From Neolecta irregularis DAH-3 (lineage: Eukaryota), in NCBI GenBank assembly GCA_001929475.1, contig LXFE01000149.1, positions 1-57,112 on the forward strand: DNA of 57,112 bases. The letters run 5' to 3'. Positions 135 to 57,112 of the stretch are shown in pieces. The notes under the pieces were generated by a model. It was not told the DNA's origin and made no database searches. It saw only the letters and a program-made list of their open reading frames with translations. Made by a program: the position numbers and the translations under genes. Each line of letters begins with the position of its first letter. Position 1 is the stretch's first letter.

Positions 135-1575
135 TCAAATATTGGTAATATTGGCGAGCCTTTTATATTCCTGCAGCAAAATTGGGATATCGCCGATTGT
201 TAGATCGTGCGCATTTGCATCGAGGAATTTTGAACCTACCTGGTGTGGTTTTGCAAAAGAGGGTATTGCGCGAGTGGTTAGATTTGTGGCAGCGCGAACG
301 ACGTTTAAGCCTGGTAGATTTGCGAGGGAACTGGAGCTACGGTTAGAGGTGACAAACAAGGGTGTACAATGATCTTTGCCCATTGTGTTTTTCTTTTGCG
401 AATAGTTGTTTTACCTCTTGGAGGGTTTTGGGGGAGGAGCTTATGTGGTCGCGGAGAAAGTTGTAGGAAGAGTCTAGAGCGGTGGAGGCGATGGAGACAA
501 CGGAGGGAGCAGGCTGTTGTGCTGAGAGGGGGGAGGGAAAGGTCTGCGAGGACGGGGAGGGAAAGGACTGTGGGTCGAGGTTGTGCAAGGACTTTGGATC
601 GAGTGTTTCAATAAAAGTAGCAGCAGCTTCAAAGTTTGTGAGGCAGTAGGACGATTCACCGGTGAGGGGAGGGTGAAAGCGCTGGACGAAGCAGATGTGG
701 GAAACGAGGTTTGAGGGTCTTGATTTTACAAGAGTGTAGATTAAGCAAGGGAGGATGTGGTCTGCGGCGGAGCAGTCATTGCCAACACGGGCGAGGGTGT
801 CGAGGACGTGCGAGTGGATGGCCTTGAGGGCGAGCAGCTTGTCGAGAGGGCTGGTGGAGGCGTACAAGGCGGGGAGTTCTGCGGGTTAGAGCGCGACTAT
901 AGGGCGGTTGCCTTTGAGAGTGTTGGAGATGGTGGCGAGGAGGAGGTTGTGCGGGAGGGCGACGGAGAGGGCCTGCAGGGAGAGGCGGGAGTGGTTGAGG
1001 CGCGCGGTGTTTGCGGCGAGGAGGAGGTCTCTCGCGCGGTCGTGCGGGGGGCAGAAGAGGAAGGCGTACGCGTGGGCGCAGACGGCTGCGTGCACCTTGA
1101 GCGACCACGCGTGTTTGCGGGCGGCGGCGCGGAGCCGGGCAGCCTTGCGGTCTTGGATCTGCCCGTAGGGGAGCATTTCGGCGGGCAGGGCCGTGGCGGG
1201 CGGCGGCGGGCGGGAGGAGTCGCGGCGGAGGGTCAGGGCAGCGAGGCAGCGGGTGAAGAGCAGCGGGTGCGAGTCTGCGGGAGCAGCGTGCAGCGAGAGG
1301 ATAAAAGAGTCGATGTCTGCGAGGATGTCTGGGTCATGGTCAGGGTCAGGCAAGCAGTCTGGGGCCTCTTGGCTGTTCGCTAGAGGGTCTGAATCGTCTG
1401 GACAACTGGCTAGAGGGTCTGAATCGTCTGGACAACTGGCTAGAGGATCTGATTCCTCTGGACAATTCGCTAGAGGGTCTGAATCCTCTGGACAATTCGC
1501 TAGAGGGTCTGATTCCTCTGGACACTCCCCCGGAGGGGTGTCTGAATTGGAGAGCGGGTCACCAAGGGGCGGCAT
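135..1575 (-). CDS. VPS9: VPS9-domain Rab5 guanine nucleotide exchange factor (3 exons)
   Basis: VPS9 motifs SPLDKL, ADHILPCLIYTLVKSRPSNLVSHICFVQRF, GESSYCLTNFEAAATFIE; C-terminal DLTIGDIPILLQEYKRLA; introns at 879-911 (GC-AG) and ~338-368. Confidence 0.8.
1379..1528 (-). repeat. Coding 30-nt tandem repeat x5 (CP[ED][ED]SDPLA[NS]) in the Vps9 N-terminus
   Basis: Unit gctagagggtctgaatcgtctggacaactg repeated with few substitutions. Confidence 0.9.
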
Positions 1576-1622
1576 CGGGACTCGCCACGGGTGGCAGTGG
1601 ACGCTCCGTCGGACTCACCACC

Positions 1623-2836
1623 ATGCTGCCGCACCTGCTCCTGCTCCTGCTCTGCCCCGCGGCCGCACCCGCCCAGTTTACTCTGCGGCACGAGTACCGC
1701 ATCGACCCCGACTCGCACGCGCCCCTCCGGACCGACCTGCGACCCGGCAGTGCCCCCCCCGCCGTGCTCCTCAACCACCGCTTGCGCCCTAAACCCACCC
1801 TGCCCAATGCCCTTGCCCGCCATAGCCCCGCCCTGCTCTTCCAGGCGCAGTCCCCGCTGCCTACACTCCCCGTCCCCGCCGTCTCCGACAAACACACCCT
1901 CGCCGAGCTCGCCCGCATGGCCAGCAACGCGTACCTCCCCGGCTTAGACTCGCCAGACTGGGTCCCCGTCGGCGCGCCCTGGAACAAGGCACCCCCCCGC
2001 TTCCCCTGCCGCCGCCGCTGCTAACCCGCCAGTCGCACCACTTTGGCTGGGAACGGGCCGGCCTGCGCGGTCACGTCTTTGTCGACCATGCAAACGCCAC
2101 CGTCGTCATCGCTCTCAAGGGCACCAGCGCGGTTCTTTTTGGCGGTGGCAAGACTTCAGCCCGCGACAAGACAAACGTACCCTCTTGCCAAGATTCCCGC
2201 TTATCGCAGGACAACCTCCTTTTTTCCTGCTGCTGCGCCCGCATCTCCTACGCTTGGAAAACGGTCTGCGACTGCTACTCCTCTGCAAACTCCTGCTCCC
2301 AGTCCTGTCTCGAACAATCCCTCCAGTCCCAAGACTCCTACTACAACGACGCCCTCACAATCTACCACAACGTCTCCTCAATCTACCCCGCTGCTACAAT
2401 ATGGCTGGTCGGCCATTCCCTAGGCGGCGCAATTGCCTCCCTCCTAGGCCTCACTTTTGGCCTCCCAACTGTCACCTTTGAGGCCCCCGGCGAGCTCTTA
2501 GCCGCCCAGCGTCTTCATCTACCCTTGCCCCCAGCTATCCCCGCGTCAGAGACAAACATCTGGCACATTGGCCACACCGGGGACCCAATATTCATGGGCG
2601 TATGCACAGGCCCTGCTTCCTCTTGCTGGTACGCAGGCTACGCAATGGAAACACATTGCCACACAGGCTTGGAATGCGTCTATGATACCGTCGCAGACAA
2701 GGGTTGGCGCATAGACATCAGATCACACAGCATCCTCCCTGTCATCAACGACGTCATCTTGGCTTACGACGATGTTCCAACTTGTAAAGAGGTCAAAGAC
2801 TGCGTAGACTGTTTTGCTTGGACTTTTCAGAACTAG
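1623..2836 (+). CDS. ATG15: Autophagy lipase Atg15 (3 exons)
   Basis: Signal peptide; MASNAY, FGW..GLRGHVF, KGTS, DNLLFSCCC, catalytic GHSLGG, GHTGDPIFMG, ETHCHTG; introns 1989-2032 (GC-AG) and 2177-2209. Confidence 0.92.
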
Positions 2837-3727
2837 TACCGCTTCTTTTGGATTCAATGGTTGATTATTTATATTTATTATCATTATGAATGATTTATCT
2901 TTTATCATGATTTATTATCATTAGATAAAGGATATGAAAAAGATTTGAAATCGGAAAATTCGAATCCCTGCAAGAGATTCTGAAGCGGATTCATGGGATA
3001 ACCCCCGGTCATGTAATGCAACACTCATGTTGGGACCTTCTCTCGTCGTTGTCGTAGACGACTTCAAAAACATCATACATCTTCAGGATGTAGATGGCTG
3101 AATCGCTTATTTTTCTCTCTGATTCATTTGGGTTGGATTTGATCTCGGTTTTTTTCTATTTAAAACAAATCCGCCTTACACGAATTCAACACCCTTGAAC
3201 GCCACATTCGTTATAAGCAGGTTCGACTGTAGAGTGAAGTTGAAGGTTGATAAATGGTTCTGCATATGCAGTAGCTGCCTTGTCAGCCGACCATCAATCA
3301 GGAGCAGCAGAAACGTTGAAAGGTTACGACCTCGCCTGGTTGATTAACCAGGCTTTCTGGGGTTCAAACAATCACTGAGTGACTCTGAAGTGCTTTTTAT
3401 GAAGATCTGGACTTTTATCTTTTTGTAATTATCTCAACTCAACCCTTGGAACAGGGCGCCTCGATATTCCGAAGATGTTTGGAAAAAACCTGACAATATG
3501 TAATACATTTGCAAAATATCGATCCCGCTTTGCAATTCTTTCCCATTACAAGCTCTTGGGTCAGCGGTTCGCCTTTGGCTTGCTATCCAAAGTAGCCTCA
3601 CAAGCCTTATTGCAATCTCGCGGATATTTCGTCACCGTCATTCTTAGACATTCGAGCAATATCAAAAATATAATATCTCGAAAACTCTTATCAACGATAT
3701 ATTTCTTATCAAGGTTGACTGCTGTGA

Positions 3728-5344
3728 CTATTCTGCCTTGTTATTTCGGTTTGCAACTTTTACCGGATCCACCCATGAATTTCCACACAGCACATTCAGG
3801 CTTTTCCTTGTAAGCGAGTCAGAAAAGGCTGATGGCGACGACTGGAAGAGCGCCATTATAATCCCGAGCGAAGCCGCAAATAAATACACATCCACATGCT
3901 TCAAATTTATCTTCTTGTGCCTCTTTTCAACAATCTTCCATGACGATGCAAGAGACAGCCGTACTAAAGAGTCGACTCGTGATTTTCCGTGCTCTCGATC
4001 TAAAAACGCAAACAGTCCGCCAATGAACCCGGCTAAATGGAATCTCCAATTAGCAACAAACGCAATCAAACATACCTCCAACGAGGAAGAAAGTTATCAG
4101 GCAGAATCCGCTGAAACGCGCAAACAGAAGCCCAACATGTTCCAAAACCAAATGTTACAAACGCAGAGACCCCGGCAATTTTTTGCGCAGTCAGCATTAT
4201 GAAAGATAAAGGACTAAATTATTAGGTCCCTGAAACAAATGGAGTTTTACTCTTTCTTCACTCTTTCATAGCGTAACAGCCCTAAACAGGTGTAGAATAC
4301 AAACATAAACTTTGAAACAGGGACTAGTTGCCTCGCGCAAAATTCGAGTAAAGTTTTCGTGCACGATGGGTTGTCGGGGTGTAGAGAAGCACAAGAGAGA
4401 TATGTAATACTAGGGTGGGCCAAATTTAATATCGGAGAGATTTCCTCAAAAACCAGAGGTACAGTAGACGCCCCGGGCCGCAATACAGGAGACTTGAACT
4501 TTGGATAATTCTTTCTTGATATTTCGGCAATGTTTTTGATTATGGTATCGCCATCTGGCCATGCAAGATGTGCCGGATAATCAGCTGGTCGCTTCTTCAC
4601 ATAAGAGTTCGAAAACCCGAATATGAAACTCTTGAAGCTCTACAATTAGAATGGTGGATGGCGAAGATTATACATTAGGGAAACAGTCTCCGTCAAAAAA
4701 CATCGCATGAAGCAATTGGCTCGAAGCAAAAGGAGCCATCATCCACGAGCCAAACCACCAGGGCAGATTAGGTAAATAACCCTCGGCACCCATGAACTTG
4801 TAGAAAGATTCAACAGCTTTGGTGAAGAGGTATATCGCAATACTGACTCGTCGGTTACCAGGCGGGTGGATAGCAAGCGCTGTCCCAGAAAGGACTCCAG
4901 CGACAATAGGAGGAAAGTACTCGGTCGAGCAAAGAGACTGAAAGTATCTCAAGGATTTACAAGGTGAAGGGCGTCCTCGTCTCTGAACCAGTTTCTGCCG
5001 AAAGCGAATAAGAAACGCGAGTAGGATAGGGTGGGAAAGAAACACTCCGGCAAAACTCAGGCCACTCCGGATGGCATTCTTTTGCGCTTTACGCAATAAT
5101 TCCTTAATTCTTATGTTTTAGAATGAACTTTGAGAAAATTTTACCCTTGTTTACCAAGTGAAGCAGGAATAGCAACATCGATCGCCAAAGTTAACGCATA
5201 AGCAGCGGTAAAAGAGCGGCACGCCGAGCGAAACTTTGCTGCCGAAGGAGAATCGGAATCATGTGAATGTTTTGATAGACCACTTTTACAAATGGAGGCA
5301 TACTCCTTGGGAGAGAGAAGAAAAGTTACAAGACTGCGGGTCAT
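3728..5344 (-). CDS. TMEM135/PMP24-like multi-pass membrane protein (5 exons)
   Basis: Hydrophobic helices; RRVSIAIYLFTKA, PFASSQLLHAMFFDGDCFP, CASLHP..PSC resemble the TMEM135 family; four short GT-AG introns restore frame. Confidence 0.65.
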
Positions 5345-5703
5345 GGGGTGAGGGGACAAGTTGAGTGGGAAAATCCATGTGAAGTTGTACCTGTATTAGC
5401 TCCACCTCTTCACCCAAATTGCATGACATTAGGTAATTTGTAAAGAAAAGTTACTATTTTGTGGCTGCAAGACACACGTTTAAAATCCGAATTTCATTAA
5501 ATGGCCAATTTCATGAAATTCAGGCTAAGAAAGTGGTTGTAAAACACGCCCTAATAGTTTAATTTCCACCTTGCGAGTTGTGAGAATGGCACGCTTGAAT
5601 AACTCCATGTTTGTACTCCTGTTATAATAATTACTTATTAATCGCAAACTAAATCGCAGAATCATATAGCAGATACTCTTATAGAATACAAGCAAAGGCC
5701 AAG

Positions 5704-7446
5704 CTAGAAATGTCTAATATCAAACTCCTCGACGTGCGAATGTAGATATAATCGTCTCGATCTATGGGGTATGCCCAATGCTCTTGTATTCCTGACAAGT
5801 GTAAACCAGGGTTCAAGTGAAGATGGGATTACCGCAATGTCCTCATGCTCCAACCAACTTGAAATGGAAATGAGTAGGCACAGAGAAGAATGATTACTAT
5901 GAAAGCCAGCGATTTTGACTTTGCAGATTGCAGGCTGTAGAGAGTAACCATTAGAATGAGCACTACAGTTCAACATAGATATATGCATTACCATACAAGA
6001 AGCGATGGTCGAACGAGTGAAGTTAAATATCAAACCGAATAAGAATATTGATATGAGAGATTGACGGAAATATGAAAATCGCATGAGTGTCCGGTTTGAA
6101 TTGTCGGCGAGGGAAGCAACAGCGGAGGCAACTTCAGTTAGACGCTGGACAATGACAATTGACCGGCTATCTAGGTCTTCAGAGATGTTCTCTGGATGAG
6201 CAACGACTTGGAGACTATTATACCCGTAGACCTACAGTCAAGCTTTCAAACTCTGCCTTTGCGTTCGAGGCACGATTTAGATTATCGTTTAAATATGAAT
6301 GTAACTGTATAGACTGTGTTGTGAGGCCCTCTGTTTGGTTCAATAAGAGGGTCTAATTATAAAGGATCGTTTTTGTAGTTGGAGCTCTACCACGAATTCG
6401 GTCAGGGAAGTGATTTTGCCTATGACCGATGGTAAGAGAGTACTATCAACTGTCTCAATCTGGAAAAGCATCTGGGGGTGAGATGTGCGAGGGAAAGAAT
6501 TACACCTCATCAGCTGCTACACGCACTTTTGTAGAAATTTGAGAATTTGAGCGCGACAATTGTGCGGCTTGCTCATTCATTTGAAGCAAAGAGTCTCTCT
6601 GCTGTTCTATAATCGACAAGTTATCATTGAAGAGCTGTCATAAGGGTTGACAGAGTTCAAGGAGATGTACCTCGTGCAATTCCGAGCGGCTATGCTTGAC
6701 AATATTTACGGTGGTTTGCAGTTCTGCATCAAGACTGGATAGTGTAGTATCGAGATGGGAGATATGACGCATGACGATAGGATGGAGCCTATCAAGGTCG
6801 TTGAATATAAGACCGAGCTTGGATGTGATTTCAGTCAGAGTTCGTAGTGTGAGGAGGTCATGCGAATGGCTCTCGTCTCTATGTTTGCGGAGCTCGTGAA
6901 GGTGGGTGTCCAATATGGCTGAGAGCTCTAATTGGACGAGCGAGATGTTTTGATAGAGGGCAATAATGTTGCCTGTACTGTTGAGAGGGCCTCTGAAGGA
7001 GGAGTACGAGTTTCCAGGTCTTTTGAGGCAACAACACAGAAGTTTAGGGTTTCGCGGTAGTAACCAGAGAACGTTGTCCATGACTAGCGGTTGGTGGTGC
7101 GGCAGGCAAAAATATCAAGGACCTGAGGACGTGCATCGAGCTGGATAAGGCAGCTGTCGAGAAGCTCGGGCTTATAACATGCCGCCGGCACCGGCAGACC
7201 CGCCGCCTCCAATTCACACACTGCCCACGCAACCGCAAAAATAAGGCGATCTCGAGAGAAAGGTGGAGTGGGCAGGCGGCAGAGGAGGGCAAGATCAGCA
7301 GAGGCCGAAGCTGGAAAACACGGTGATTGGGCGGCGGCAAAGGTTGTCAAGGCAGAAAGACGGTCGAGCACAGTGTCAGAAGAAATATCGTTAAGTAAGG
7401 CAGCAGCAGTTGTCGAAAGGATTGCACAGACACATAATACCTGCAT
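5704..7446 (-). CDS. KAR5: Nuclear fusion (karyogamy) protein Kar5/Tht1/GEX1 family
   Basis: Signal peptide, Cys-rich domain (AVAWAVCELEAAG..P.AC...SCL..L..RPQSWTTFSGYY...FC), coiled-coil middle, C-terminal TM helices; ~6 short introns; 3' exon boundaries uncertain. Confidence 0.78.
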
Positions 7447-7529
7447 CTGAATGGGAGGCAGGTGGTGGTGGTGATGGTCGGTAGAGATGTCTCCAAGCTG
7501 TGGCCGTCCCACCCACTGAAATTGAAGGT

Positions 7530-7855
7530 CTTGGTAAATATTTAGTCCTTTCAATAGATCGTCAAATGACATTCATTCCCATCTTGCAGTTTGATACCAT
7601 CTTCTAGCTTCACCGCCCAAAAAAAAGAGCTGTGATTCCATTCTTCAGAAAAAGTAATCTTCCATTGTCTTTCTCCAAGTTCTATGCCATAGCATCTTTT
7701 TCACCCACATATTTTTCAGGCTTTTCAATCTTGAATGACATAACTGACTTGGATATTGGATCAACTTCTTGTTTCTTTTCTTCCTTTTTTGGGCCAGGGG
7801 ATCTAGATTTTGGTAACGGGGATTCTTCTTTCACAGATCTTATTCTAGGAGGCAT
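7530..7855 (-). pseudogene. Degenerate Ty3/gypsy-type retrotransposon gag fragment
   Basis: Translation across a frameshift and stops gives FKIEKPEKYVGEKDA / RTWRKTMEDYF* / LFFLGGEARRWYQT..* / SFDDLLKGL, matching the retrotransposon Gag capsid pattern. Confidence 0.6.
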
Positions 7856-7973
7856 AAACTGGCTTATCTCTGAAAAAAATGCAAGCCTGATTCTTAGAGA
7901 AACATCTCCTGGTCACCTATTTTCAGGTTTACTGCGAGAAAACTTTGTTTCATTTCGCAGCACCAGGTTGTTG

Positions 7974-9344
7974 TTAATGCAATCGTAAACTAAAGCCAGC
8001 TCCTCCAATCTCACCTTCACCAAAGAGACTTCCCCGATCCACAATGGGAGCACTCGGACTTTCATGCTTTCTCCTTTCCCCAGAAGATTTGGAAGGAAAA
8101 CTTGGCATCAATTCTGTTGCTTGCGGTCGTGGTTCTTCAGTGAAATAAGGATGCTGCATCGCCACGCGAGCTGTGATGCGATTCGAAGGGTTCAAGGAAA
8201 GTAGATCTGAAAGCAGGTTTACCCCTTGTCGAGTCAATAAAGGAAACCGAGCTCGCAAAATTGAGCCTCGTCTGTAAATTAATTGATATTCGCATCGAGG
8301 AAATGCTACGCGGCGAGATGCTTCGGAAAGTTTATTGCCTTTGCATTAGGAAGATCAGAAAACCCTGGCCACTCCTCATCAGATGGAACTCCTAGAAGCT
8401 CAAAGATCCGGCGTTAGGCCAATTGATAACGATCCAAACCTTTGAAATTTGATCCAATTCGCTTTTGCCCTGCAACAGAGGTTTACCTGTTAGCAACTCG
8501 GCAAAAATACAACCAATTGACCACATATCAATTGCAGTATCGTATTTTATCGCACCGAGAAGTAGCTCCGGAGCTCTGGAATATCAACAAAATAGATATG
8601 AGTTTACTTACCGATACCATAAAGTAACAACGAGCTGGGTTAAAGGCGGCAGCGGGTCGCCATACAACCGAGCAAGTCCAAAGTCTGCTATTTTTATCAT
8701 TCCTCGATTGTTCATGAGTAAATTTGAAGTTTTCAAGTCTCGATGAATAATCCAGTAATCATGAAGAAGAGCCGTAGCCGATAGCAATTGGAGCATCAGT
8801 GTTTTGACTTCCGATTGAAGGAATGGTTCCTTCATATCTTCCATGAGGGTTTTGAGATCATGCTCGATATAATCCATGACTATAAACACGCTCAATATTA
8901 CCTTCTTTTGTTAAAAAAAAGTGGGTAATACTGCGAAAGGCTTTCTCCCATGACGACTTCCCGTATATTTACGATATTCGGATGCCGAGCGACCATTAAT
9001 GTTTCTATCTCTCGTAGACTCGTAACTGGAAACCCATTCTTTTCATTGTCCAATTTGAGTTTCTTTAGAGCTACTATTTCGCCAGTTTCCATATCCCTAG
9101 CACGATAAACGATCCCATAGGAACCTTCCTCGATGTGGTTGAGCTTTTCGTATGTGTCTACGAGACGACAGGATTCCAGAGGTGCCCCGAAGAATTGAAT
9201 GGAACGATTTGATGGGATTGATGGTTGCTGTTCCTCGACAGCGGCCTTTGAGACTGAACTCTTGCGTTTCCTAGACTTTTTTGAAACTCGGGAAGAAGCT
9301 ACAGATGGTCCCTCAAGATTGTTATCATCCCATCTCGAAGTCAT
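7974..9344 (-). CDS. CDK11: CDK11/PITSLRE-like cyclin-dependent kinase (Ppk23/NpkA type)
   Basis: [50 protein letters not shown]; 4 introns, one apparently GT..GG at 8408-8439. Confidence 0.9.
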
Positions 9345-9412
9345 CAGGCCCGGCTTTACAACATAGGTTGAGGTCGAGTCCCGCAACGTTCCCTTCGCTT
9401 TTCCCACAATCA

Positions 9413-10829
9413 ATGTTTTTGAATTGTACATCACGAAGGCTGATTACGGGGTTCAAATGCACATGGAGACAGTATACCAGCAAGGGTAGACTACCGCTGG
9501 AGGATATGATAATCGAAGCGATCAAGACAACTGGTCCACTCTCACTTCCTTCTTATATGAGGCTATGCCTTACAAATCCAGACCATGGTTATTATGCAGG
9601 AGGGAAAGATCCTCTAGGCACTTCAGGTGATTTTATTACATCACCAGAGATATCACAAATGTTTGGTGAACTGATTGGAATCTGGTTCGTCACTCAGTGG
9701 ATGGCGCAAAAAAAGCCGTCGCATTATAATCTAATTGAACTTGGTCCTGGAAGGGGAACACTACTAGACGACGCTTTACGTGTACTTATCTCAGCAATAT
9801 TGCTGCTAAACTGTCCAAGGCAATACAAGCATTTCCCGCCTGTGCGCAAGCTTTGAAGCGTATCCATCTGATAGAATCAAGTTCTACTCTTCGTGAGTTG
9901 CAAGCAAGAAAGCTCTGTAAAGTAGGCTCGCTGCGTCTTGGCGATGACAACTTATGGAGAGGCTCAGGAAATCTCGGGTGTCCTGTGACATGGCACGAAG
10001 ACTTGAAGACACTCAAAAGGGGTAGACGAAAGGCCGACTGGACAAAAGCTAATAGATAGAAGAGAGTGATGTTCCATTTGTGATAGCCCACGAATTTTTC
10101 GACGCTCTACCAATCCACAAGTTTGAGGTATTAACTTTTGATCTTTGATCTAACCGGCAGCGGACTTGTGAAGGCTGGAGAGAGCTTTTAGTCGATTCTT
10201 GCTCAAAGACTTTGCATTCGATACCTGCAAGCCCTTCAACGTCTACTGGGATCTCAGCAAGTGCTTTCCAACTAGTTCGTGCCAAAGGACCTACTCCAAC
10301 GAGTATAGCTATTACAAATTCATCGCCCCGCTACCAATCATTGCCAATAGGTTCGCGATTCGAATGCTCGCCTGATACTTTTGCTATAACGCGAGATCTT
10401 TCTCAGAGAATCAAGGCTGGTGGAGCAGTTCTTATCGTTGATTATGGACCTGAAAAGACTATTCCAATTGATACCCTACGTGGGATTCGGAAGCACAAGA
10501 TTGTATCTCCCTTTGAAACGCCTGGAACAACGGATCTCTCTGCAGATGTTGATTTTCAAGGTATCAAAGAGGTGGCTTTAGATGAAAAATGTGATGTCTA
10601 TGGACCTATAGAACAGGGAGTATGGCTTCAGACTCTAGGTATAGGTGCACGGGCAGAACAATTGAAGGCGTCTCAAAGCACTGTACAAGGCTGTCATCGT
10701 ATAGAAATCGGTCAAAAGAGACTAGTTGAAAGTAACCATGGATCCATGGGAAAAGCATACAAATTCATGTCAATTCTTCGAAAAGATAGTCCGATACCGG
10801 TAGGCTTTGGGGGTGATATACAAGATTGA
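9413..10829 (+). CDS. NDUFAF7: Mitochondrial protein arginine methyltransferase NDUFAF7/MidA (DUF185)
   Basis: GDFITSPEISQMFGELIGIW, ELGPGRGTL, AHEFFDALP, VDYG, DLSADVDF; 3 introns. Confidence 0.92.
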
Positions 10830-10842
10830 AGTAGACACTGAT

Positions 10843-12040
10843 TTAGTATCGAAGTGTCCCCAAGGGATCCAAACGCGAAATAGACGTCATCTTTTCAGCT
10901 TGCTCGTCTTCAGTCATGGGGCGCATCAATAATTCAATGACTTTAATACGTTTCTCGACGTGTTGACGGTCTTTTGCCGTGCGTCGTCTTTTCAACACTG
11001 ATCGACCGTGCAGATTCGTGTAACGAGCAAATTTACCTTCTTCTGTCGGTAACGCGAGTATTATATCAGTTGATAAGGCCTCTGTATTTAAATTTGTTTC
11101 GTAATCTCGAACATGAACAAAAGTTGTAGACACCTAAGGATCAGCAACAACTAAAACTTGAGATTACATCTTGAGTATTTCCCTCTGCAATTTTACGTTT
11201 GAGATTTGTTGAACTACGTTCATCTGCAAGAAAATATGAAAGCCATTCATCACCTACAGCAGATTGTGTAGGCCTGAACAAGGCTGTAACAAAACGGGGA
11301 TTGTCGGGCGTTGGCTCTGGTAAATTGGAGTCTGGACATCCTTGAAATTTCATTAACATGTACGTATTGTCGAAAATCTCAACGTCTGGGAACACGTCTA
11401 TCAATTCAACGGCTGTTAGATGTGCTTTTCTTGGATTGGGATGAACAAAAGAGTTGCAGTCAAACTCTGCAAAGGATTGCTCTATGGCGTCAAGTTGAGC
11501 ATGCGGATCGCGAAGTTTCTCTTGTCGTTCTGCCGCAGCCTTGATCGCTCGTATATTTTGTTGCGATTCTATCGTTATAGGCGGTTTTATGGAGGCTCTA
11601 GCCTCTGATGAAATATATTCTGTTCTGCGCAAAAACGATACACCAGCAGGATTGCGTTGCACTGAAGAAATGTGATCTGAGTCTTTAAGCAGGGCTTGAT
11701 CTTTAGGATCGAGCTGGGAATTCTGAAGAGGGTATAGTGCTGACTCGTCGCCCTCGAATAAACCAGGAAGAGCAGCGAGGTTCAACGGCATTCCCAGCTC
11801 TGGATCGAGATCAATACTCGTGGGAACTCTTTTTACAAGATCAGAGATGTAAGTAGTGTCGGTGTATCTCGATAATGGCGTTGGAATGTCGATCAACTTG
11901 GGTGCAAAAGGCGGTGCGGGCAATTGGTTCTAGCCTTTCAGTGACAACACACCAACAGGAGCAACCTGAAAGCGAAATCGTGCTATATAATCACCTATGG
12001 AGGACGATTGTGCCGATGATGAAGATGTTGGAGCTGGCAT
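10843..12040 (-). CDS. PAF1: RNA polymerase II-associated factor Paf1
   Basis: DYIARFRFQ|NQLPAPPFAPKL, ELGMPLNL, LDPKDQALL, VSFLRRTEYIS; 2 introns. Confidence 0.9.
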
Positions 12041-12449
12041 TTCGGGGAGAGTCGAAGGAAAGCTTGTAAGCACGTGGACGAGGGTATTTCGAAATGGGTA
12101 CAGTTTTCTCTTTCACATACAGATATAGTAAATACTTCTAACATGTAAAAGGAATGTATAGAATATCTCAATCTGTCAGTTTTCCCAAAAATGAATTCAC
12201 AGAATTGGAATTCTTGAAAAGAAATTTCAAATTTCACATTTTTCAATTTCATGAAATTATTTCCATGGTGCTGCAAAACGCGCCCTTAAAAGGTTTATTC
12301 GCTAGCCTAAGTATTGTGTACTTGGTTGGCTAATGTATCTATCTCTGTAATCCTGCTTTTATACTCGGCTTTTAATGACCCCAATATTATCCTATGCCTC
12401 CTTGCCGTATTAGTAAGGATATACTCACTCCACCACATACTCTAATGTT

Positions 12450-13239: not shown

Positions 13240-13370
13240 AAGATTTTTCAATGGTCTCGTATGTTCATGTAGTTATACAAAGACATACAGGATTGGATTT
13301 CTACTCGAAGTAGCAATGCTTGCTTTTGGAATGGCTCATAATTTCCACAAAGCATTTCAAGTCCTTTTAT

Positions 13371-14786: not shown

Positions 14787-14827
14787 AGAAGTATGGTGGT
14801 GAGCGAAGAATTAAAAATATTTATTGT

Positions 14828-21114: not shown

Positions 21115-21117
21115 GGA

Positions 21118-43593: not shown

Positions 43594-43781
43594 AATTCAT
43601 GTCGCATACGGGATATATTAGTTGTATTTGTTGCAGGCATTGGTAGGAGGAGTTATTTCTTCACATGTCAATAGTTATCATGATAGCGATAATTGGTGTT
43701 ATTGTGCGACCATGCCGCTAACGCCCTGCTCACCATGATAACCCCCAAGAAAAACGTAATTCTCGCTTTCTTCCACTTGCC

Positions 43782-45630: not shown

Positions 45631-45787
45631 TTAGCGGCGCTGTATTATATTCATGTATTCTTACCCCTTGTACATAACCAAACGACCAATAGACATCCTT
45701 ATTTTCCTTGCGGCTTTGTTCATTGTATTAATCCTGTAGCGTACACGTGCAACTTAAAAGATTTTCCGGAGAGCCCATGATCATCAT

Positions 45788-47532
45788 ATGTTCCGAGTGT
45801 CACCAATCTTGAAACGAACTATTCAGACAAAATCATATGGCCAGCCTCTGCCACAGACGCATCCTCATTTGTTTACATCTCATCTAGAATGTATAGCTAT
45901 TCGTGGTCATGTTACTGAAACAATCGTCAAGTAACACCAGGTATTCCCGCCAGTGAATACAAATCGAGACGGGATCGGCTCGCAGCAAAACTTTCCGAAG
46001 GAGACCTTGCCATTATCGCTGGTAGCGCAGTTCAATGGCGTTCATCGAGTGTTTTGTGCGTACCTGAAACTATATAATTTTAAAATATGCAGTTATCCGT
46101 TCTACCAAAATTCCGACTTTTCGTATATTTCAGGTACCCCCGTTTTACTTTGACAGTCTACTCATCATCAGGATTTCTAGAGCCGGATGCATTGATTGTC
46201 CTGGAACGATCAGATAGCTACGACCGTGGATATAAATATCATTTATACGCCCGCGAAAAGGACCCACATGAGGAAACATGGCAAGGTTCACGTTCTGGGA
46301 ATCGAGCTTGTATCAAGATTTTCGGTTCAGACACCTCGACTAATATTGCCACAATGAGTTCCTCGTTGAATGAATTAATCACGAGAGCGGGTAATATATA
46401 CGTTGATCTTCCAACAAGATCGTCACCAAAGGACTTCCTCTCTCCGAAAGTATTACGGGTAAGGATGTCAAATTTGCAGGAGGCTATAGATCAATTGTTG
46501 TCCCACAAGTACGTTTTGCCTCTTTCATCAATATTACATCCTATGCGTGCATTCAAAAGTCTCGCTGAAATTGAATGCATGAGAAAAGCAGGGGAAGCTT
46601 CTTCACAAAGCTTCGACTGTGTCATGAGTCAAAGCTTTAAATTGGAGTCTGCCCTCTGGGCGTGTTTTGAACATGAAATTAGGCGTAATGGTTGTCATTC
46701 TGATGGATATGTACCTGTTGTTGCAGGGGGGGAAAATGCTTTGATCTTGCACTACGTCGAGAATAATAATGTGCTGCGGTAACAAGAATGTATAAGAGTT
46801 TCCAGTAAACTCGTAGGAATGGAGATCTGGTCTTACTGGATGGGGGAGGAGTATGCTCCCTGACATCTGCTTCAAGTTAACAAGAGTAGCAATACGGAGG
46901 TTATACCGCCGGTATGTCAACCCAGATATGGAACTAATTTTCCAAAAAAAGATATTACGAGGACATGGCCTGTGAACGGTAAATTTTCATGCGCGCAGAA
47001 AGCTCTTGTCTCTGCAGGTAGATACTATACTCTGTTCACATCATAACATCTTAGTTTTGGAAGTGGAAAAAAAGTGCATCAAGTTGTGCACACGATCAGC
47101 CGGTTTGTCTCTTGATGATATCCATGACAAAAGCAAAGAATTCCTTGCTGCTAAGTTGAAAGAAATTGGATTCGGATTTGAAAACTACGTACGATCAAAA
47201 CCTGACTTGTTCTTATGCTAGTCTCTAACTGATATTTATCCTCATCATATCGGGCATTTCGTTGGACTTGATGTTCATGACTGTGCTAAATTTCCGCGTC
47301 ATCAACATCTAGAAACTTCGCAAGTGGTAACAATCGAACCGGGCGTATATGTTCCAAACGATGACAGATTCCCCAAACATTTTCGAGGAATGGGAATTCG
47401 CATTGAAGACTGCGTACTTGTCGGGGAATATTCACCAACCCTGTTGACCAATGTCATTTTTATCATTGTTCCTGCATGCTAATCATCTAGGCTCAAAAAG
47501 AGATTGAAGTGATCGAAAGTCTTCGTTCATAG
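45788..47532 (+). CDS. ICP55: Mitochondrial Xaa-Pro aminopeptidase Icp55
   Basis: GQP..THPHL, YVPVVAGG.NA.ILHY, QYGGYTADITRTWPVNGKFS, HHIGHFVGLDVHD, VTIEPGVYVP, GIRIED; 9 introns. Confidence 0.92.
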
Positions 47533-49232
47533 TACTTTCTGACGCAGCTTGACCTTACTATCGACGTCGATAAAAGCTTCGAAACCGGCTCGCTCTAACG
47601 TTACTGATGGCACAGTTCTGAGGGCCTCGAGGCTTTCGACAGCAGCCTGATTCGTAGTGTTGTTTTTAAGAAGGTTGCGGATACAAAAGATAGCATATTC
47701 TCTTAGATCTATATAATAAGTACCCGGTTAATGTGTGTAATTCTTACAGGGGTTGTTATCGTCAATGTGGCACTGCGACAAGATGAGCGGAAGAACCCCC
47801 ATATTAAATACACGGTCTTGTATTGTCCTGGACTCGAAGGATAGCGAAGCGACCAGGCGGAGACAATCCCGTTTGATGAAAGCAGACCTAGAATTAGGCT
47901 TTCCTGCACTCCTTCGGCGTGGCTCTTGAACAGCGTCGATTTGATCGGCGTTTTTCAGCATTGCTAGATATTAGCAATTCATATCGACATCAAGATCGAA
48001 TACAAATGACGATTTCCAAGATCTCTTCAGAGGGCATAATTATTCTTACAGATTCTTCAACTGACAAACGAAAGAGTAAGTCAAGGAGGGACAGAGCAGA
48101 TGGGAAGAGACAAGAGTCTGGCAGTATTTCCGCCGCCTGTTGCATGTAACATTCCGTCTGCTTGAAAATGATACGGGCTATATCGAGTATATCTTTTGCT
48201 ATAATAGCACCACAAGTACTGTAAACAGATATAACATCCTCGGTAAATGCCGTATCGATGATATAGATAATGTTGTCTTGTTCTATGCATATGCCGTCAA
48301 CTCTTGTCATTAGGCAAAATTTTCGAGGACCCATACCGCGAAAACTTTTGAAAAATGGCGAGCAGCACGCGACACTCGATCAAGCGGATAACGATATTTG
48401 CCCTGGATAAACTTAGAACAACTTCCGCATCGAAAAGATTACATTACATCGGCCAAGACCCTATTCTCGGTGACGTTCGTATCAAACGAGAGCAAGTATT
48501 GCAGAAGCTTGGGGCCGGTTGAAGATTCAGTAAATTCGATGCTTCATTGTGAGGAAGTATAAAAATGTGAGCTGTACCAAATTGATTTGCTTTGGCTAAT
48601 CATATTTAGCGTTAGTATTGCCATTGCCTCCCCTAATTCTGTATGATTTTCTCTCCCTGCCAAACTAGAGTAAGCTTTGATCTTTTAGTAGCAATATACA
48701 CAGTCAAGATGTCAGTCTCAGGCAAAGTCCACCTATGCAATAGCTTTTCTGTCATCTCAATGTTTGAAGTGATTGAATTTGAAAGGAACTGGAACATCAA
48801 GCACAACAACTCTACGATTTTAGCAGGAAAGAGATGGAGAAACGCACTCTCATGAGGTTTGATCAGAAGCACATTGCTCTCCAATAGGATATCGAACTCT
48901 ACTTGACTAGACATCACTCAGGAATGCTACCTTCAAGTGCCTTACCTCGCGAGCGCCTGAGCTGTAATTCCTGCTGCAAGAAGTGTCCTAGCAGATCGAA
49001 GAATTGAGCTAGCCAGTCCCACAGCGGCATCATTATCGAGCATTTGGATCACATTTCTCATTATATTGTACAGGAAAACCCAAACGGAAGGTTTCAGTGC
49101 CAAAGTAATTCTCTCTTCTGGAGAAGCGGCTATCTGTGCTGCAAGTTCTTTGAGTGTATTACCAGCTCCTTGATTCCCTACTAAGAGGTTATTTTCATCG
49201 AAACATGCTAGAAAGGATGCTGGGCTGTCCAT
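47527..49232 (-). CDS. Ataxin-10 / Ctr86 family ARM-repeat protein
   Basis: KRDCLRLVASL..IQD..GVLPLILSQCHIDDNNPYLREYAIFCIRNLL.NN..NQ (Atx10 homology). Confidence 0.85.
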
Positions 49233-49393
49233 TTTATTGGTCAAATTTGTGATGTAGTTACGTTCTATATATTATCGCACGATTGTAGAACTTAACCACC
49301 ATACTCATCTCCGTCTTTCAATAGTAAGGTTGGATGGACTCTCTCGGTCTCGTCCTCTCTGCCTGATTCGCATTATCAAAATTGACTCCCTAT

Positions 49394-52300
49394 ATGGATC
49401 TGCGGTCAAGCAAAAGACAAAAGTTAACTCATCCTCAGCAACCATTTTCATCCACCTCACCAGATTCAACCCCAGCTTCCTCGAGACTAACCCACCCCAT
49501 TTCTCCACAAGCTCAAGGTCAAGCTCGACGGAGGTTTGTGGTTCTTCTTCAAATACTTTGGGCTTTGCTGAATAGCAGTAGATCTTTTAAGAGCGATTCA
49601 ATTGATCAGCTCCAAGAGCAAGGGAAACCAGTCAAGAAACGCAAGCTCGAAACCTCTAGAGACCTTCTATCTATCTCCCATCAACGAGAATCTCGAACCT
49701 TAGGCTCAACTGAGCTTTCTGAAGAATCATCTTCAAAATATAGCCTTAGACCTCGAAGACCTAAGACCTCATCCACTCCGTTATTTGAAAGTAAAATTCA
49801 ACACATATCGAGGACTAGAAATACTTGCAAAATGCCAAGGTTACAACAATTATTATTCGTGTGTTAACTGCTTCAGGTCAGAGAAGCCCTCAAGCTCACT
49901 TCGCTCAAAAGGGTCCAACAAGCGCTCTGGTCAAATGTCGATCGAATCGCAAGGTATGACTCAATGAATATATGTGGATTGAAGTCTAGAAACATCCATC
50001 GAACGAGAAATATTTGAAGAACGTGCGACTGAGGACCGAAGTGAACATGAAGATGAAACTATGGAAGAATTAGGTGAAGATGCTATACCAGATCGCGGAA
50101 TGAGTCTGGGAAGTTTCCTTCGAAGAAATCCTTCTATCTTGTTCGGTCGTAGTGCTTTCCTAGGTGGCATGACAAGTAGTGTCTCTCCCAGCAGATTCAA
50201 GATTATCCTAGCTAACCTCCGCGAGAAGAACGATCAAACTATCCGGCTTGTTGCTTTGCAAGAATTGGCTGAAATTCTTGCGGTTTCAACTGAGGAGTCT
50301 CTCGCAGGTTATTTTTCGGCAGAGCCCTACATCCACGAACTAGTCGATATCATGCGGGGTTCTGATAACCCGATGTTCGATAATCCAGAACTTATGGTTT
50401 TGGCATGTCGATGCCTAGCAAACCTTATGGAAGCTTTGCCAGCAACAATTGGCCAGATTGTTTATGGAGGAGCTGTCCCAGTTCTGTGTCAGAAGCTACT
50501 TGAAATACAGTACATCGATGTAGCTGAACAGGCTCTTACTGTATGCCTTATCGCTCGACATGTTATTGACTGGAGCAGACTCTCGAAAAGATTTCAGTCG
50601 ACTATCCTTCGTCTATTGTTCGTGAAGGTGGACTCGCCGCCTGTTTGTCCTTTCTCGATTTCTTTGCAACAAACGTGCAACGGACAGCTGTCATAACCGC
50701 CGCGAATTGTTGCACAAATATCCCATACAACTGCTTCTCTATTGTGCGTGATGTAATTCCAATTCTTCAACAAGTGGTTGCTGGGAGTGATCATAAAGTC
50801 GTAGAACAAGGTTGCATTGCGATAGCGCGAATAGTCAACAGTTTTAAAGCTCATCCGGCAAAACTCGAGGTTTGCGCATATCAAACACCCGCTGATTGTC
50901 GACAGGAACTTCTGCAGCCAAGTTTATTAGAGGTTATCATTGACATGCTACTTCCTTCAAAAAACAACAATCTCAGTCCGAGTATTCATACGCAGTTTCT
51001 TCGCCTTTTAGGGACGATTTCAAGGACGTCTTTCAAATTACGGACACAGTTACATAAGATGAATGTTGGAGCGAAGCTTTATCAAATCATGAGTGGCGTT
51101 GCCTTTGACTTGGAAATAGTGCAGAATGAAGAAAGACGAATGGTCATTCTTCAAAGCATGATTCACCGAAACTACGATCAAATTTTTGAAACATTGAGCA
51201 CCATATACGAATTACTTCCTGTCGTACCAAATGAAGGTGAGTGTATTTTTTGTGTATTGAAGATAACTTTTTAGTTCCCTCGATTTTACCGTCCCCTGAC
51301 ACTTCGGACAAACCGACGAGTGAAGACATTGCGGAAAAGCAACAAAAATTCATGGAAGAATGTCGGGGCGAGCTTTTGTCTTTCGCAATTATTCTAGCAC
51401 CTGTCCTCGTTGATTTATATTCCAGCACTGTCAATATCATCGTTCGGCAAAGAGTGTTAACATCACTTCTGCGTATTGTTAGCAATTTCCACAAATCCAT
51501 GCTTGAGGAGACTCTAAAGGTATGAAAACGTATGATTCGACATTCCCATATGTTAGGACATTCCCTTTGCTCCCTTCCTCGCCTCTATTCTATCTCAGAA
51601 AGACAATAACATTCTTGTTATGGATGCCTTGCATTTATCGCATGATCTGCTTCTAAAGTTGCCCGATATTTATCTCGATTTATGTGAACGAGAAGGGGTT
51701 ATCATGGAGGTTCAGAAACTTGCGAGACTGGTGAGTGAAAGGCCCAATACTTCAAGTGATACACCTGAAAATTCAAAGGCATACAATATACTGGCATTAA
51801 AACTGACTGTAGCTCGAAACAGAGCCTGATATTCAAGAAGTTGAAGAAGTTGCAATTGAAATTTCTGGCTCTCTTGGCTGCGATGAAGACCATGGGGTTA
51901 ACGGAGATGACGATGAAGACGACGAGGACGATGTGGATGAGGAAGAGAGTGAAATGGATGATGAAGTAGCAGTGCGACATCTTACTACTACAACCCAAGA
52001 TGGCACAGATGATATGCGACAAAAGGCAACTCAAATTTTACTGACTTATGAGAAAGCTCGCAAGGAGCATGAGTCCTCGGCCCAAGCTTCAACTAATCTC
52101 AAGCAACTTGAAATTTTACGTGATGCTCTAGAGAAAGGAGTTGATTTCGATGAAAACTTTGCAAATCTCTCCACGTTTTTCGATTCAAATCCTTCGAAAG
52201 TATCTAGCTATGAACTCTTGAATTCCGGGATCCTTACGGCTCTATATTCTGCTTTAACTTCTGGTAGATCTTAACCAATACTGTATTGATAAGTTAGATC

Positions 52301-55068
52301 ATCCATCTCGCATCACAATCCGAGAAGCCTTTTGTCGGAGGTTCATGACGCCTTTTTCCGGCTCATCGCAGCAAAGTGCTCTTTCTGTCCTAGTGCGAAA
52401 ACTTCATGAGCTCCTTGGCCGGAGCGAAAAGTTTGAGGTTTATACCGCAGGGGACGATTATATGGATGGTAAGAAGCCACTATGACAACTTCAGTTAATT
52501 CATTGTAGAGAAACGGCGTAATTCAACCTCGGCCTTGTCCAGGCAAATGAAATTGAGACTGATTCCGGAAGGCTCCACAGACGTCGGAAACATTTCCGGC
52601 ATGATCATATCAATTCACGCAATCGCCACCTTTAAAACCCTTGACGACTTTCTGAGGTCACGAATATTCAGTTCAGATATATCAAGTAGTACCCCCAGAC
52701 GATCCCTATCCAGTCTACTTGGAGCCAGATCGATTGTACCCGAAAGTATTCAAACGAAAAGCAACGTGCGAACTGGAAAGGATCACAATACGAAAGAGAC
52801 GCCCTTGCAACGACCTCGGTCGATATCCAAGGGCGATGATTCGCATTCAGAAGATGGGGAAGAATCAATTAATGTCGAAGAAACTCCTGGAGGGAGGTTG
52901 GTGACCAAACGCTCGGATGGAACGCAGCTACTGACACCTCTGTCTACTCCTCGTCAAGGAACGCCTTCGCAAATTCAGAATATCGAAGCCTCCCGAAAAC
53001 ATAATACATATGCTGCAGCACTGCAAAGTCCCCCTGAGAACTGGCACTTTGAATTTTGGATTGGCAACAATGTCGTTGCAAAAGACAGCACTATATACGG
53101 TGCTATTAGCAAGCACTGTGAAGTTTTTGCTCTGCAGTCTTTGAGTCAGACGGTGCAGACCATCAAATTTCGCAAGGTTTCTGGACCGGATTCTCATATC
53201 TCTGGTACCTCTTAGTAGCTGCATTTAGACTCACGATTGTAGTGCCACGGCCATCAGCTGTAGATACTCTGGCCCAGGATATTAACAGTCGTCTTGCGAA
53301 ATATGGTAATATCGGAATTATCATGCAACTTCTAGCTGCCTTGAACGATATCAATTCGACTTGGCAGGAGTTTTTCCATGGTAATACGCATTTGCTTTCT
53401 ATCAAGTCAATTCCATCGAACGTTTTTATTAATCCCAAAATTACGGCCAAATTTAGTCGTCAATTGGATGAACCATTGATTATTGCCAGGTAATCAACCA
53501 TTTTGAGGCAAGTTCTCTAAATGTGTAGTTCGTCTTTGCCTTCCTGGTGCGAAGACTTGGCGTTATATTGTCCCTTCTTGCTTCCATTCGAGACTCGGTA
53601 TCTCTTCTTGAAATCGACGGCGTTTGGATATTCGAGGTCCCTTACCCGATGGCAATCACAACAAAATCGGGATACCTCGCGCCGGGGTCGAGTTGATGAC
53701 TCCAAGACTCTCATCTCTCGCACCCCTAGACAGAAGGTTAGAATGCAGAGGGACAGAATGCTCGATTCTGCTCTCAAGATTTTCAGAACTTATGGATCTC
53801 CGGCTGCCATACTTGAGGTGGAATATTACGATGAAGTTGGTACTGGCCTCGGGCCAACTCTTGAATTCTATGCAACAGTCTCTAAGGAATTCTCCCAAAA
53901 GTCATTATCATTGTGGAGAGGATCGAATTCTTCTGCTGGCGGTAGTTATGTGCACACATCCGAAGGACTATTCCCTAACCCAATCAATGTACTGACTGCA
54001 AAACCTGAAACCCTTGGGTATATCTTTCCTTCGTTGACGAATCTCTTATCTGAAGGTCTCTCTTAGCCCACTTCAAGGGTCTTGGACAGTTCATTGCCAG
54101 GTCGATGCTCGATTCCAGGATCATTGACATTCACTTCAATCCACTGTTTTTACGACTTGCACAGACTCCTGCATCTGTTATAAAGTCAGTGGGACTAATT
54201 AGACACGTCGATAAAGATCTCTTCCGTGCTCTTTGTCTCTTGGATACATATATCGCGGAAAAGAAGCGAATCAAGATGCTAAACATCGATGCAGTGTCAA
54301 AAGGAAGTTTACTGGACCAAGTTCAAATAGACGATATTTCCCTTGAGGATTTGTGTCTTCATTTTACCTTGCCTGGATTCTCTGACGTAGAGCTTATGGT
54401 ATGTCGTCTGCCCGCAACCTTTTAGACTGACATGCAGCCGAATGGTGCTGAAACTGCGGTTACAATCGACAATGTTGAAAGTTTCGTACATGCTGTTATT
54501 GATTTCACTGTGGGATCTGGAATCCAGCGACAGATCGATGCCTTTAGGGAAGGCTTTTCATCCATATTTTCCTTCGATTCGTTGCGGACATTATTTGTTG
54601 ATGAATTGATCATGCTGTTTGGTCAAGCCGATGAGGATTGGTCTATTGAAAGTAATTGTCAGTCTTTATCTGTCCTCATTTATCTAGCATTAACGACCTC
54701 CATCAAGGCTGACCACGGGTTCCATTCTGAAAGCGTAACGATTAAGCGTCTCATAGAGGTCATGTCGGAGTTTGATACATCTCAGCGACGGCAGTTACTA
54801 CAATTCTTGACTGGAAGTCCTCGATTACCAATTGGAGGTACTTTGTGCACTCATTCTTTACTGATGGAAAGGATTTCAAAGTTTGTCTCCGCCCCTTACC
54901 GTTGTCTGTAAGCCTAACGAACCTCCGCTTACCTCGGATGACTACCTTCCAAGCGTGATGACTTGTGTGAATTACCTCAAGTTGCCGGATTATTCCAGCA
55001 AGGACGTTCTCAGAAAGCGAATACTTTCAGCGGCTGTGGAAGGTCGGGAATCTTTTCATTTGTCCTAG
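49394..55068 (+). CDS. UFD4: HECT E3 ubiquitin ligase Ufd4/TRIP12
   Basis: ARM region [86 protein letters not shown]; ~16 introns. Confidence 0.95.
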
Positions 55069-56577: not shown

Positions 56578-56652
56578 GGAGGGAGAGAGGGAGGGATATA
56601 GGGAGGGAGAGAGGGAGAGCATAGGGAGGGCATAGGGAGAGCATATAGGGAG
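56565..56652 (+). repeat. Purine-rich repeats derived from the CAP1 stop region (GGGAGGGCATATAG-like)
   Basis: Repeated gggag(g/a)gca(ta)tagggag units. Confidence 0.75.
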
Positions 56653-56669
56653 ACAGACAGAGACAGACA

Positions 56670-56790
56670 CAGGAATCAACTAACCTCCAGCAACCAGACA
56701 GATAATCAACTAACCTCCAGCAACCAGACAGGAATCAACTAACCTCCAACAACCAGACAGACAGGAATCAACTAACCCTCCAGCAAAACC
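56670..56790 (-). repeat. ~29-33 nt tandem repeat x4 containing the Sft1 stop region
   Basis: Unit aatcaactaacctccagcaaccagacag repeated; the rightmost copy encodes ..WRVS*. Confidence 0.85.
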
Positions 56791-57112
56791 ACAGGAGGCC
56801 GAGCCCGGCGAGGATGGCGGCGACCAGGGCGGCGGTGCGGGAGCGGGCGGTGGACGATCGCGCGAGGCGGGCCGCAGTGCCGCGCACCGACTGGCGCAGG
56901 CCCGCGAGCAGGTCGGCCTGCGCTGGTCAGCACGGCGGAGCAGGCCGCATACGCCCGAGTGCAGCAGCGCGTGGTCGCCCGCCTGGCGCCGGATGTCCTG
57001 CGTGACGGTGTGCAGCGAGCGCACTTTGGCTGCCAGCGCGTCCAGCGACTCTGCGCCTGTCAGCCCCGCCGCGACCGCAGAGTACCGTCGTTGCGGCGCT
57101 CCATGCGATCGG
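56768..57112 (-). CDS. SFT1: Golgi Qc-SNARE Sft1/Bet1-like (5' end at or beyond the window edge)
   Basis: DRMERRND|ESLDALAAKVRSLHTVTQDI..|ADLLAGLRQSVRGTAARL + C-terminal TM AALVAAILAGLGLLWFCW; two 35-nt GT-AG introns. Confidence 0.7.

Follow-up and report, generated by a model that had tools for sequence, protein, structure and literature searches.

Almost all introns in a 57,112-nucleotide (nt) stretch of Neolecta irregularis DAH-3 DNA (contig LXFE01000149.1, the whole of which is here called the window) are only 31-45 nt long. They are very probably ordinary U2-type GT-AG introns, with a few GC-AG introns among them, of an intron-rich early-diverging ascomycete in which the entire intron population has shrunk to just above the minimum size for the spliceosome. 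We consider them a real, extreme and probably under-described case of the known short, intron-defined U2-type introns, and not a new splicing system. For the narrow length distribution we favour evolutionary shrinkage against a steric minimum over a separate measuring mechanism.

The open reading frames (ORFs) of the window are split into many short pieces, and Pfam matches to the exon pieces reveal a fungal gene set with KARI (ILV5), PEPCK_ATP, Rad4 and BHD domains, COQ5, Paf1, Copper-fist, Zds_C, a HECT ligase and others. Three public N. irregularis DAH-3 proteins, P0001, P0121 and P0122, map exactly to the window DNA and require 9, 16 and 12 introns, respectively. To these 37 annotated introns we added 90 from other genes, predicted with our own gene finder, a Viterbi algorithm that combines codon log-odds with GT/GC..AG introns and for which donor, branch and acceptor matrices were trained. 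The resulting set comprises 127 introns; the GC-rich, repeat-bearing window ends and two antisense models were left out.

The lengths of these introns are confined to a remarkably narrow band. The median is 36 nt, and the 125 introns within 31-45 nt have a mean of 36.7 nt, a standard deviation (SD) of 2.59 nt and a 5th to 95th percentile range of 33-41 nt. Among the annotated introns, 36 of 37 fall at 32-45 nt and the remaining one is 103 nt. This band had been claimed in an initial annotation of the window, which also pointed to a 31-nt intron at 16693-16723 and to the 68-nt first intron of the ILV5 gene as an outlier. All three statements stand: the former intron is confirmed as GT..AG, and the latter (16309-16376) is one of two outliers, although it is predicted only. 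The other outlier is the annotated 103-nt intron at 51710-51812, for which a rival 34-nt GC-AG reading exists. Lengths of the classes 3n, 3n+1 and 3n+2 number 39, 40 and 48, that is, there is no shortage of 3n introns among the 127, with a finder that is biased against stop-free 3n introns; 14 of the 39 would be stop-free if retained. Introns of ~36 nt suit the layout expected under intron definition, with short introns between longer exons, although several of the exons here are themselves only 13-19 codons long.

The splice signals are sparse at the 5' end. The donor consists of G1 (100%), T2 (97%), A3 (77%), T4 (51%) and G5 (32%) and holds 6.1 bits over positions -3 to +8, with 6.0 bits in the annotated set, which is unbiased by our own matrices. 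It is thus little more than GTA, with positions +4 to +6 nearly uninformative, and weak donors such as GTTCGC, GTTTGG and GTCAAA are seen. The degenerate donors of the initial annotation are borne out by these values (~6 bits), and five of the six donor hexamers that it cited occur in the set, the exception being GTCCTT.

The branch signal is loose and at the same time clearly positioned. A strict YTRAY is correctly placed in 71 of the 127 introns, in agreement with the varying branch sites that had been described, and NTNAN lies 5-14 nt from the end in 122. The commonest pentamers are CTGAC, CTAAT, CTGAT, TTAAT, CTAAC and CTAAA, which gives yTnAy overall. YTRAY with its A 5-12 nt from the 3' G was observed 69 times, compared to 13.8 ± 3.4 (maximum 22) in 200 shuffles of the intron interiors. 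The distance from the predicted branch A to the 3' G is 8.2 ± 1.8 nt (6-9 nt in 103 of 125 introns), and the segment from the 5' splice site (5'SS) to the branch measures 27.5 ± 2.6 nt. At acceptor position -3 we counted 58 T, 40 C, 23 A and 6 G, corresponding to 77% YAG, 18% AAG and 5% GAG. AAG and GAG had been said to be frequent; this was overstated, since together they make up 23%, albeit the example given at 17012-17014 is indeed GAG. The reported lack of a polypyrimidine tract holds, as pyrimidines account for 57% of the positions between branch and acceptor and 59% of those upstream of the branch (values from an earlier set of 120 introns).

When the branch is placed 5-14 nt before the intron end, 121 of the 127 introns take as their 3' splice site (3'SS) the first AG located 5 nt or more past the branch A, and 22 introns pass over a closer AG, within 4 nt of that A. 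The mechanism that we infer from positions, lengths, signal statistics and this first-AG rule is intron definition close to a steric limit, with length as partial compensation. A minimal 5' site (G-T-A and a weak T at +4) would pair across the intron with a loose yTnAy branch ~27 nt downstream, and the first AG at least ~5-6 nt beyond the branch adenosine, usually at 6-9 nt, would become the 3' site. A pyrimidine tract would play no part in recognition, and the intron length would compensate in part for the weak 5' site.

Because nearly all introns are 31-45 nt long, length itself rules out most false donor-acceptor pairings. To quantify this contribution, GT/GC..AG pairs were scanned in 45,111 nt of sense-strand pre-mRNA with a threshold that is passed by 114 of the 127 true introns. 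The number of decoys decreased from 2169 at 20-299 nt to 96 at 31-45 nt, a 22.6-fold cut that corresponds to ~4.5 bits from length. Mean log-odds amount to 6.0 bits for the donor, 4.7 bits for the acceptor and 5.2 bits for the branch (best match in its window), so the length share is about one fifth of the usable information (~4.5 of ~20 bits).

The initial annotation had gone further and proposed that geometry replaces sequence information. In its strongest form this would be a true ruler, in which a fixed span is measured from the 5' site, e.g. by a rigid bridge of the U1-Prp40-SF1 type, the first usable AG past ~32 nt is taken, and length substitutes for lost 5'SS and branch information. 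The confinement of 125 introns to 31-45 nt, the total-length SD of 2.6 nt and the almost uninformative donor positions +4 to +6 would all fit such a device. A distance rule, by which the acceptor is the first AG 32 nt or more from the donor, is also correct for 114 of 127 introns (33 of the 37 annotated). However, a branch rule, in which the best branch match 17-36 nt downstream is followed by the first AG at least 6 nt further on, is equally good with 114 of 127. Prediction accuracy therefore does not separate the two rules, and the data do not favour a ruler. Against it stand also the strong enrichment of a positioned branch motif, the first-AG rule that holds almost throughout once the branch is assigned, and the two long introns. 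In the latter the branch still lies 8 nt (68-nt intron) and 6 nt (103-nt intron) from the AG, and the extra length is in the 5' segment (59 and 96 nt), which argues against an obligatory total-length ruler, with the reservation that one of them is predicted only and the other contested. Moreover, the contribution of length to recognition is already accepted, in quantitative terms, for fungal introns. Taken together, we regard a true ruler as unlikely.

What remains of that proposal is thus its quantitative part: length does carry recognition information and the intron segments are negatively correlated (see below), but geometry does not replace sequence, as a positioned branch motif exists. 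This motif, the first-AG rule, the spacing in the long introns and a distance rule that performs no better all speak against a ruler independent of sequence, a kind of recognition for which no family is described. The observation named in advance as speaking against the idea, an acceptor that simply follows the first AG, comes close to what was found when the AG is counted from 5 nt past the branch A. Nor is the system undescribed, since its features are in print for fungi and the introns are already present in public protein models.

Several points weigh against the shrinkage reading of ordinary introns. One of them concerns the two intron segments, 5'SS to branch and branch to 3'SS, the lengths of which are negatively correlated in every subset (r from -0.37 to -0.55): r is -0.37 in the 125 core introns, -0.45 (p 0.002) in 36 annotated introns and -0.51 in 58 introns with a single YTRAY. 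Consequently, total length is tighter than its two parts, with a variance of 6.7 compared to 10.2 for the summed segment variances (roughly half to two-thirds across subsets). Independent recognition of branch and acceptor alone does not predict a negative correlation, which suggests a limit on total length, and a ruler would draw on the same numbers. On the other hand, the correlation could be inflated by wrong branch assignments and by length-aware predictors, and shrinkage against a minimum total size would likewise produce it. Assignment of the branch anywhere in the intron gave spurious distant sites and inflated r to -0.80, and was replaced by the 5-14 nt window and the subsets with a unique YTRAY.

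Weight matrices and length together still leave 96 decoys next to 114 true introns (90% sensitivity). Of these decoys 40 are purely exonic, 15 of them with 3n length. Matrices and length do not, then, fully specify the introns, and exon context, co-transcriptional order or decay of mis-spliced RNA must help; alternatively, some decoys are real introns missing from our models. Furthermore, the evidence for splicing consists of protein models and homology, and the finder behind 90 of the 127 introns presupposes GT/GC..AG and includes a length prior. The branch sites were assigned with a matrix trained on the same introns, and the sample is one 57-kilobase (kb) contig.

The segment correlation allows a more specific, and in our opinion rather doubtful, version of the constraint, in which the limit would act on the total intron span and not on each segment by itself. 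If the U1 small nuclear ribonucleoprotein (snRNP) and SF1/U2 were bridged across the intron with a fixed reach, introns might be set mainly by GTA, a weakly specified branch and a length of 31-45 nt, and the 5' site could have been free to decay at positions +4 to +6.

It is highly improbable that the narrow band was created by the reconstruction, i.e. by a gene finder or annotation pipeline that favours ~36-nt introns. The length term of our finder was trained on its own output, and the public models likewise come from prediction software. The finder also errs: among the 37 annotated introns it recovered 26 with exact boundaries (8 of 9 in P0001, 12 of 16 in P0121 and 6 of 12 in P0122) and added one, at 53598-53636, without counterpart in the public model. 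The 11 missed introns include four 3n stop-free ones inside open frames (e.g. 24755-24793), two upstream of the model start and two with weak signals that were fused into one false 200-nt intron. One acceptor (3 nt off) and one donor differ from the public models. Given these misses, intron counts in the other genes are probably underestimates.

Nevertheless, the band appears without a trained length term. A flat intron penalty with limits of 25-80 nt already gave predicted lengths clustered at 34-42 nt. Once the donor, branch and acceptor matrices had been trained, a run with a flat length prior of 20-300 nt gave 122 predicted introns. Half of them (61) measured 31-44 nt, only 5 measured 45-90 nt, and the other 56 were scattered evenly from 91 to 299 nt; these last we read as two short introns plus a skipped exon. 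The peak at 31-44 nt and the near-empty range above it show that the narrow band is not made by the length prior. Models from a flat penalty with long introns allowed jumped over short exons and were discarded.

Homology provides further support that owes nothing to a length prior. Pfam profile positions run on directly over 29 junctions, e.g. PEPCK_ATP 265|266, 308|310 and 396|397, Pantoate_transf 108|110, UQ_con 77|78, PPR_2 28|29 and Ran-binding 70|73, 137|139 and 271|274. Continuity extends over 15 further introns via short bridging exons with residue counts that fit the missing positions within 0-3, and the junctions GTP_EFTU_D2 24|32 and HECT 114|127 were left uncounted. All 44 introns supported in this way are 31-41 nt long. 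In union with the annotated introns, removal restores continuous homologous coding sequence, by Pfam continuity or exact match to a public protein, for 68 of the 127, and 67 of these 68 fall at 31-45 nt. According to the genome paper, which describes a genome of 14.5 megabases (Mb) with 44% GC and 5,546 genes, 99.4% of the genes are supported by RNA-seq (PMC5309816).

A hidden minor class of U12-type or non-canonical introns, including non-AG acceptors, might be thought to lie behind the odd sites, i.e. the four GC donors (against 123 GT) and weak donors such as those listed above, but it can hardly be upheld, as all 37 introns of the three public proteins are GT..AG, the GC-AG introns match the rest in length (35-37 nt) and branch layout, and no listed donor resembles the U12 consensus ATATCC (PMC3033335). 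Of the GC donors, which the initial annotation had also noted, three of the four are confirmed by exact Pfam continuity (17380-17416, 29981-30015 and 37792-37826), for which the GT alternatives were rejected. Its non-AG acceptors, in contrast, are not needed anywhere; finder and mapper allowed AG alone, so none could be detected outside the annotated introns, and the 90 predicted introns are GT/GC..AG by construction because only these were searched. The U12 signature, 5' ATATCC or GTATCC with a TCCTTAAC-like branch, does not describe this population, in which the donor is degenerate past GTA and the branch pentamers vary. By inspection of the intron lists, a few donors read GTATCT, none of them with the conserved U12 branch motif.

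The features of these introns have precedents. In Taphrinomycotina, 5'SS and pyrimidine tracts are reported to be degenerate and branch signals intermediate (PMC12861292), and fungi more broadly show weak pyrimidine tracts and strong branch sites, with a considerable contribution of intron length to recognition and an information deficit that extends to many species (PMC3033335). Intron length supplies more than 30% of the recognition information in some species (PMC6157073), and under intron definition the splicing efficiency depends on intron length (PMC8624252). Studies of Schizosaccharomyces pombe assign the 3'SS to the first AG that is 5 nt or more past the branch (PMC4787815).

The window introns resemble those of S. 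pombe and other Taphrinomycotina in their GT-AG ends, their degenerate 5' sites, a branch of the yTrAy type and the lack of a real pyrimidine tract (PMC4787815, PMC12861292), as well as in the use of the first AG at least 5 nt past the branch and in the probable pairing of sites across the intron (PMC4787815, PMC8624252). They differ in that lengths are far tighter here (SD 2.6 nt, with 125 of 127 at 31-45 nt) and in a donor nearly without preference at +5 and +6, G5 being present in only 32%. The 5' site of S. pombe is probably stronger than the one found here.

With the related Pneumocystis they share intron-rich genes and very short introns (PMC7181583, PMC7940399), and both Pneumocystis and N. 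irregularis are listed as high in intron density (PMC7940399). Median or mean lengths in print are 45 base pairs (bp, median) in P. jirovecii and 50 bp in Peltaster (PMC7181583). Unlike Pneumocystis, an AT-rich obligate parasite, N. irregularis is a free-living fungus with 44% GC, and its median in the window, 36-37 nt, is ~9 nt shorter. Ciliates, microsporidia, dicyemids and myxozoans have introns below 30 nt (PMC13644364), and the likeness consists in genome-wide intron populations packed into a narrow band near the lower limit. In contrast to those introns of 15-30 nt, which lie under the classical limit of ~30 nt, the minimum here is 31 nt and a recognisable branch motif is kept.

The sizeable share of length agrees with work on length as information (Iwata and Gotoh 2011, Gotoh 2018; Lim and Burge 2001 as cited in PMC6157073) (PMC3033335, PMC6157073). 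The passages of that work cover species other than this one, and the shortest species mean given there, among 61 eukaryotes, is 56 bp (PMC3033335). No text on Neolecta intron size was found in titles and abstracts or in the Neolecta/intron passages of the literature searched. The main text of the genome paper (PMC5309816) contains neither 'intron' nor 'splic' and one supplement no 'intron', although its PDF supplements (Supplementary Table 1, Methods) may hold intron statistics. Since that main text is silent, Neolecta introns may be under-described, even though they are present in public gene models.

If the distribution in the window is genome-wide, it is among the shortest and tightest reported for an intron-rich fungus (~36 nt, compared to 45 bp and 56 bp above). 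For gene prediction it implies that a finder based on ORFs and signal scores loses introns, as ours did with 11 of 37 annotated ones, four of them 3n and stop-free. The introns are also natural material for asking how far the sequence requirements of a spliceosome can be reduced and whether a lower size limit applies to the entire intron or to its segments. Should the limit on total span be true, Neolecta would provide a natural model of near-minimal intron definition assisted by geometry, in a fungus that is free-living and multicellular.

The gene models and introns discussed individually are collected in the Table.

Table. Positions in the window of the gene models and introns described in the text.
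Feature	Position	Strand	Description
Span of the analysed introns	4044..54871	both	29 gene models, 127 introns
ILV5-like ketol-acid reductoisomerase gene	16105..17599	+	8 introns of 68, 37, 31, 36, 34, 38, 35 and 37 nt
First ILV5 intron, 68 nt	16309..16376	+	Branch CTGAT, A 8 nt from 3' G; predicted, no homology support across
Shortest intron of the set, 31 nt, ILV5	16693..16723	+	GTATGC ... CTCTAAAT ... CAG
36-nt intron, ILV5	16979..17014	+	Branch CTGAC; acceptor GAG at 17012-17014
34-nt intron, ILV5	17081..17114	+	Branch CTGAC, A 6 nt from 3' G; acceptor AAG
37-nt GC-AG intron, ILV5	17380..17416	+	GCATGC ... CTGAT ... TAG; KARI_C 64-89 then 91-143
Public model P0122, 955 amino acids	17816..21111	+	Rad4-like and COQ5-like parts; 12 GT-AG introns, 32-41 nt
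34-nt intron, P0122	18942..18975	+	GTAGTC ... CTCAC ... CAG
PEP carboxykinase gene (P0001)	23561..25591	-	9 GT-AG introns, 34-39 nt; PEPCK_ATP continuous over junctions
39-nt 3n stop-free intron, PEP carboxykinase gene	24755..24793	-	Weak donor GTTCGC, branch TTAAT; missed by ORF-based finder
35-nt GC-AG intron, ketopantoate hydroxymethyltransferase gene	29981..30015	+	Pantoate_transf 110-158 then 160-225; GT alternative 158 then 164
35-nt GC-AG intron, eRF3/HBS1-like GTPase gene	37792..37826	-	GTP_EFTU 1-52 then 54-134
HECT-type E3 ligase gene (P0121)	49394..55065	+	16 introns: 15 of 32-45 nt, one of 103 nt
38-nt intron, HECT gene	50541..50578	+	Tandem acceptors GAG|CAG (50573-50578); public model distal CAG, own model GAG 3 nt upstream
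103-nt annotated intron, HECT gene	51710..51812	+	Branch CTGAC, A 6 nt from 3' G; length outlier

In the ILV5-like gene the profile positions of KARI_N and KARI_C run on across the exons. The shortest intron is covered by a 43-amino-acid (aa) exon that bridges KARI_N 48 to 91, and the 34-nt intron at 17081-17114 by exons of 15 and 23 aa that bridge KARI_C 24 to 64. For the GC-AG intron of the eRF3/HBS1-like gene, the GTP_EFTU score of the second exon is 90.5 bits with the GC model and 84.1 bits with the GT alternative.

In the HECT gene, the 103-nt intron has an alternative in our own model, with 23 extra exon codons followed by a 34-nt GC-AG intron at 51779-51812, and no Pfam domain covers 51710-51812 to decide between the two readings. 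The tandem acceptors at 50573-50578 are a candidate for alternative splicing by 3 nt. At 53598-53636 (+) the finder cut out a 39-nt GT..AG stretch (GTATCT ... TTCGAG) through which the public protein reads; this is probably a false positive of the finder, and shows that exons hold intron-like decoys of the right length.

In P0122 the false 200-nt intron of the finder was replaced by the introns at 18942-18975 and 19116-19149, the latter with a GTTTGG donor. A 32-nt intron at 20036-20067 (+) links a Rad4-like protein (Rad4, BHD1-3) to a COQ5-like methyltransferase. When this intron is left unspliced, the Rad4 frame ends after two codons (GTT TTG TAA), and the COQ5 frame has no ATG upstream of its conserved domain. 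P0122 may be a genuine fusion, a case of shared exon use, or two genes that the annotation joined.

The annotated 3n stop-free introns are those at 24755-24793 (-), 49534-49578, 54652-54687, 18728-18763 and 20645-20680 (all +). Their retention would insert 12-15 residues without a frameshift and would not trigger nonsense-mediated decay, and they are missed by ORF-based finders.

The GC content of the window is ~44%, and scans with tRNA and Rfam models gave no matches, hence no match to a small nuclear RNA (snRNA) within the window. The window ends (1-4000 and 56100-57112) are unlike the rest and were kept outside the intron statistics because gene models there are unreliable. The left end begins with a run of C at 1-40, and its first 4 kb have 54% GC, long ORFs that overlap on both strands, and 30-nt tandem repeats at 1377-1524; tandem repeats of 24- to 59-nt units occupy 56564-56786 at the right end. 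The 3' part of the Ran-binding-protein gene holds another tandem repeat (40486-40652; 51-nt unit, 3.3 copies, 76% matches) as well as a 132-aa antisense ORF model at 40145-40540. Finally, the stretch 12100-13300 (+), where the finder called no gene, contains ORF pieces, e.g. 12605-12955, and possibly represents an unmodelled gene; within it, 12796-12829 is a candidate 34-nt GT..AG match with the donor GTCCTT.

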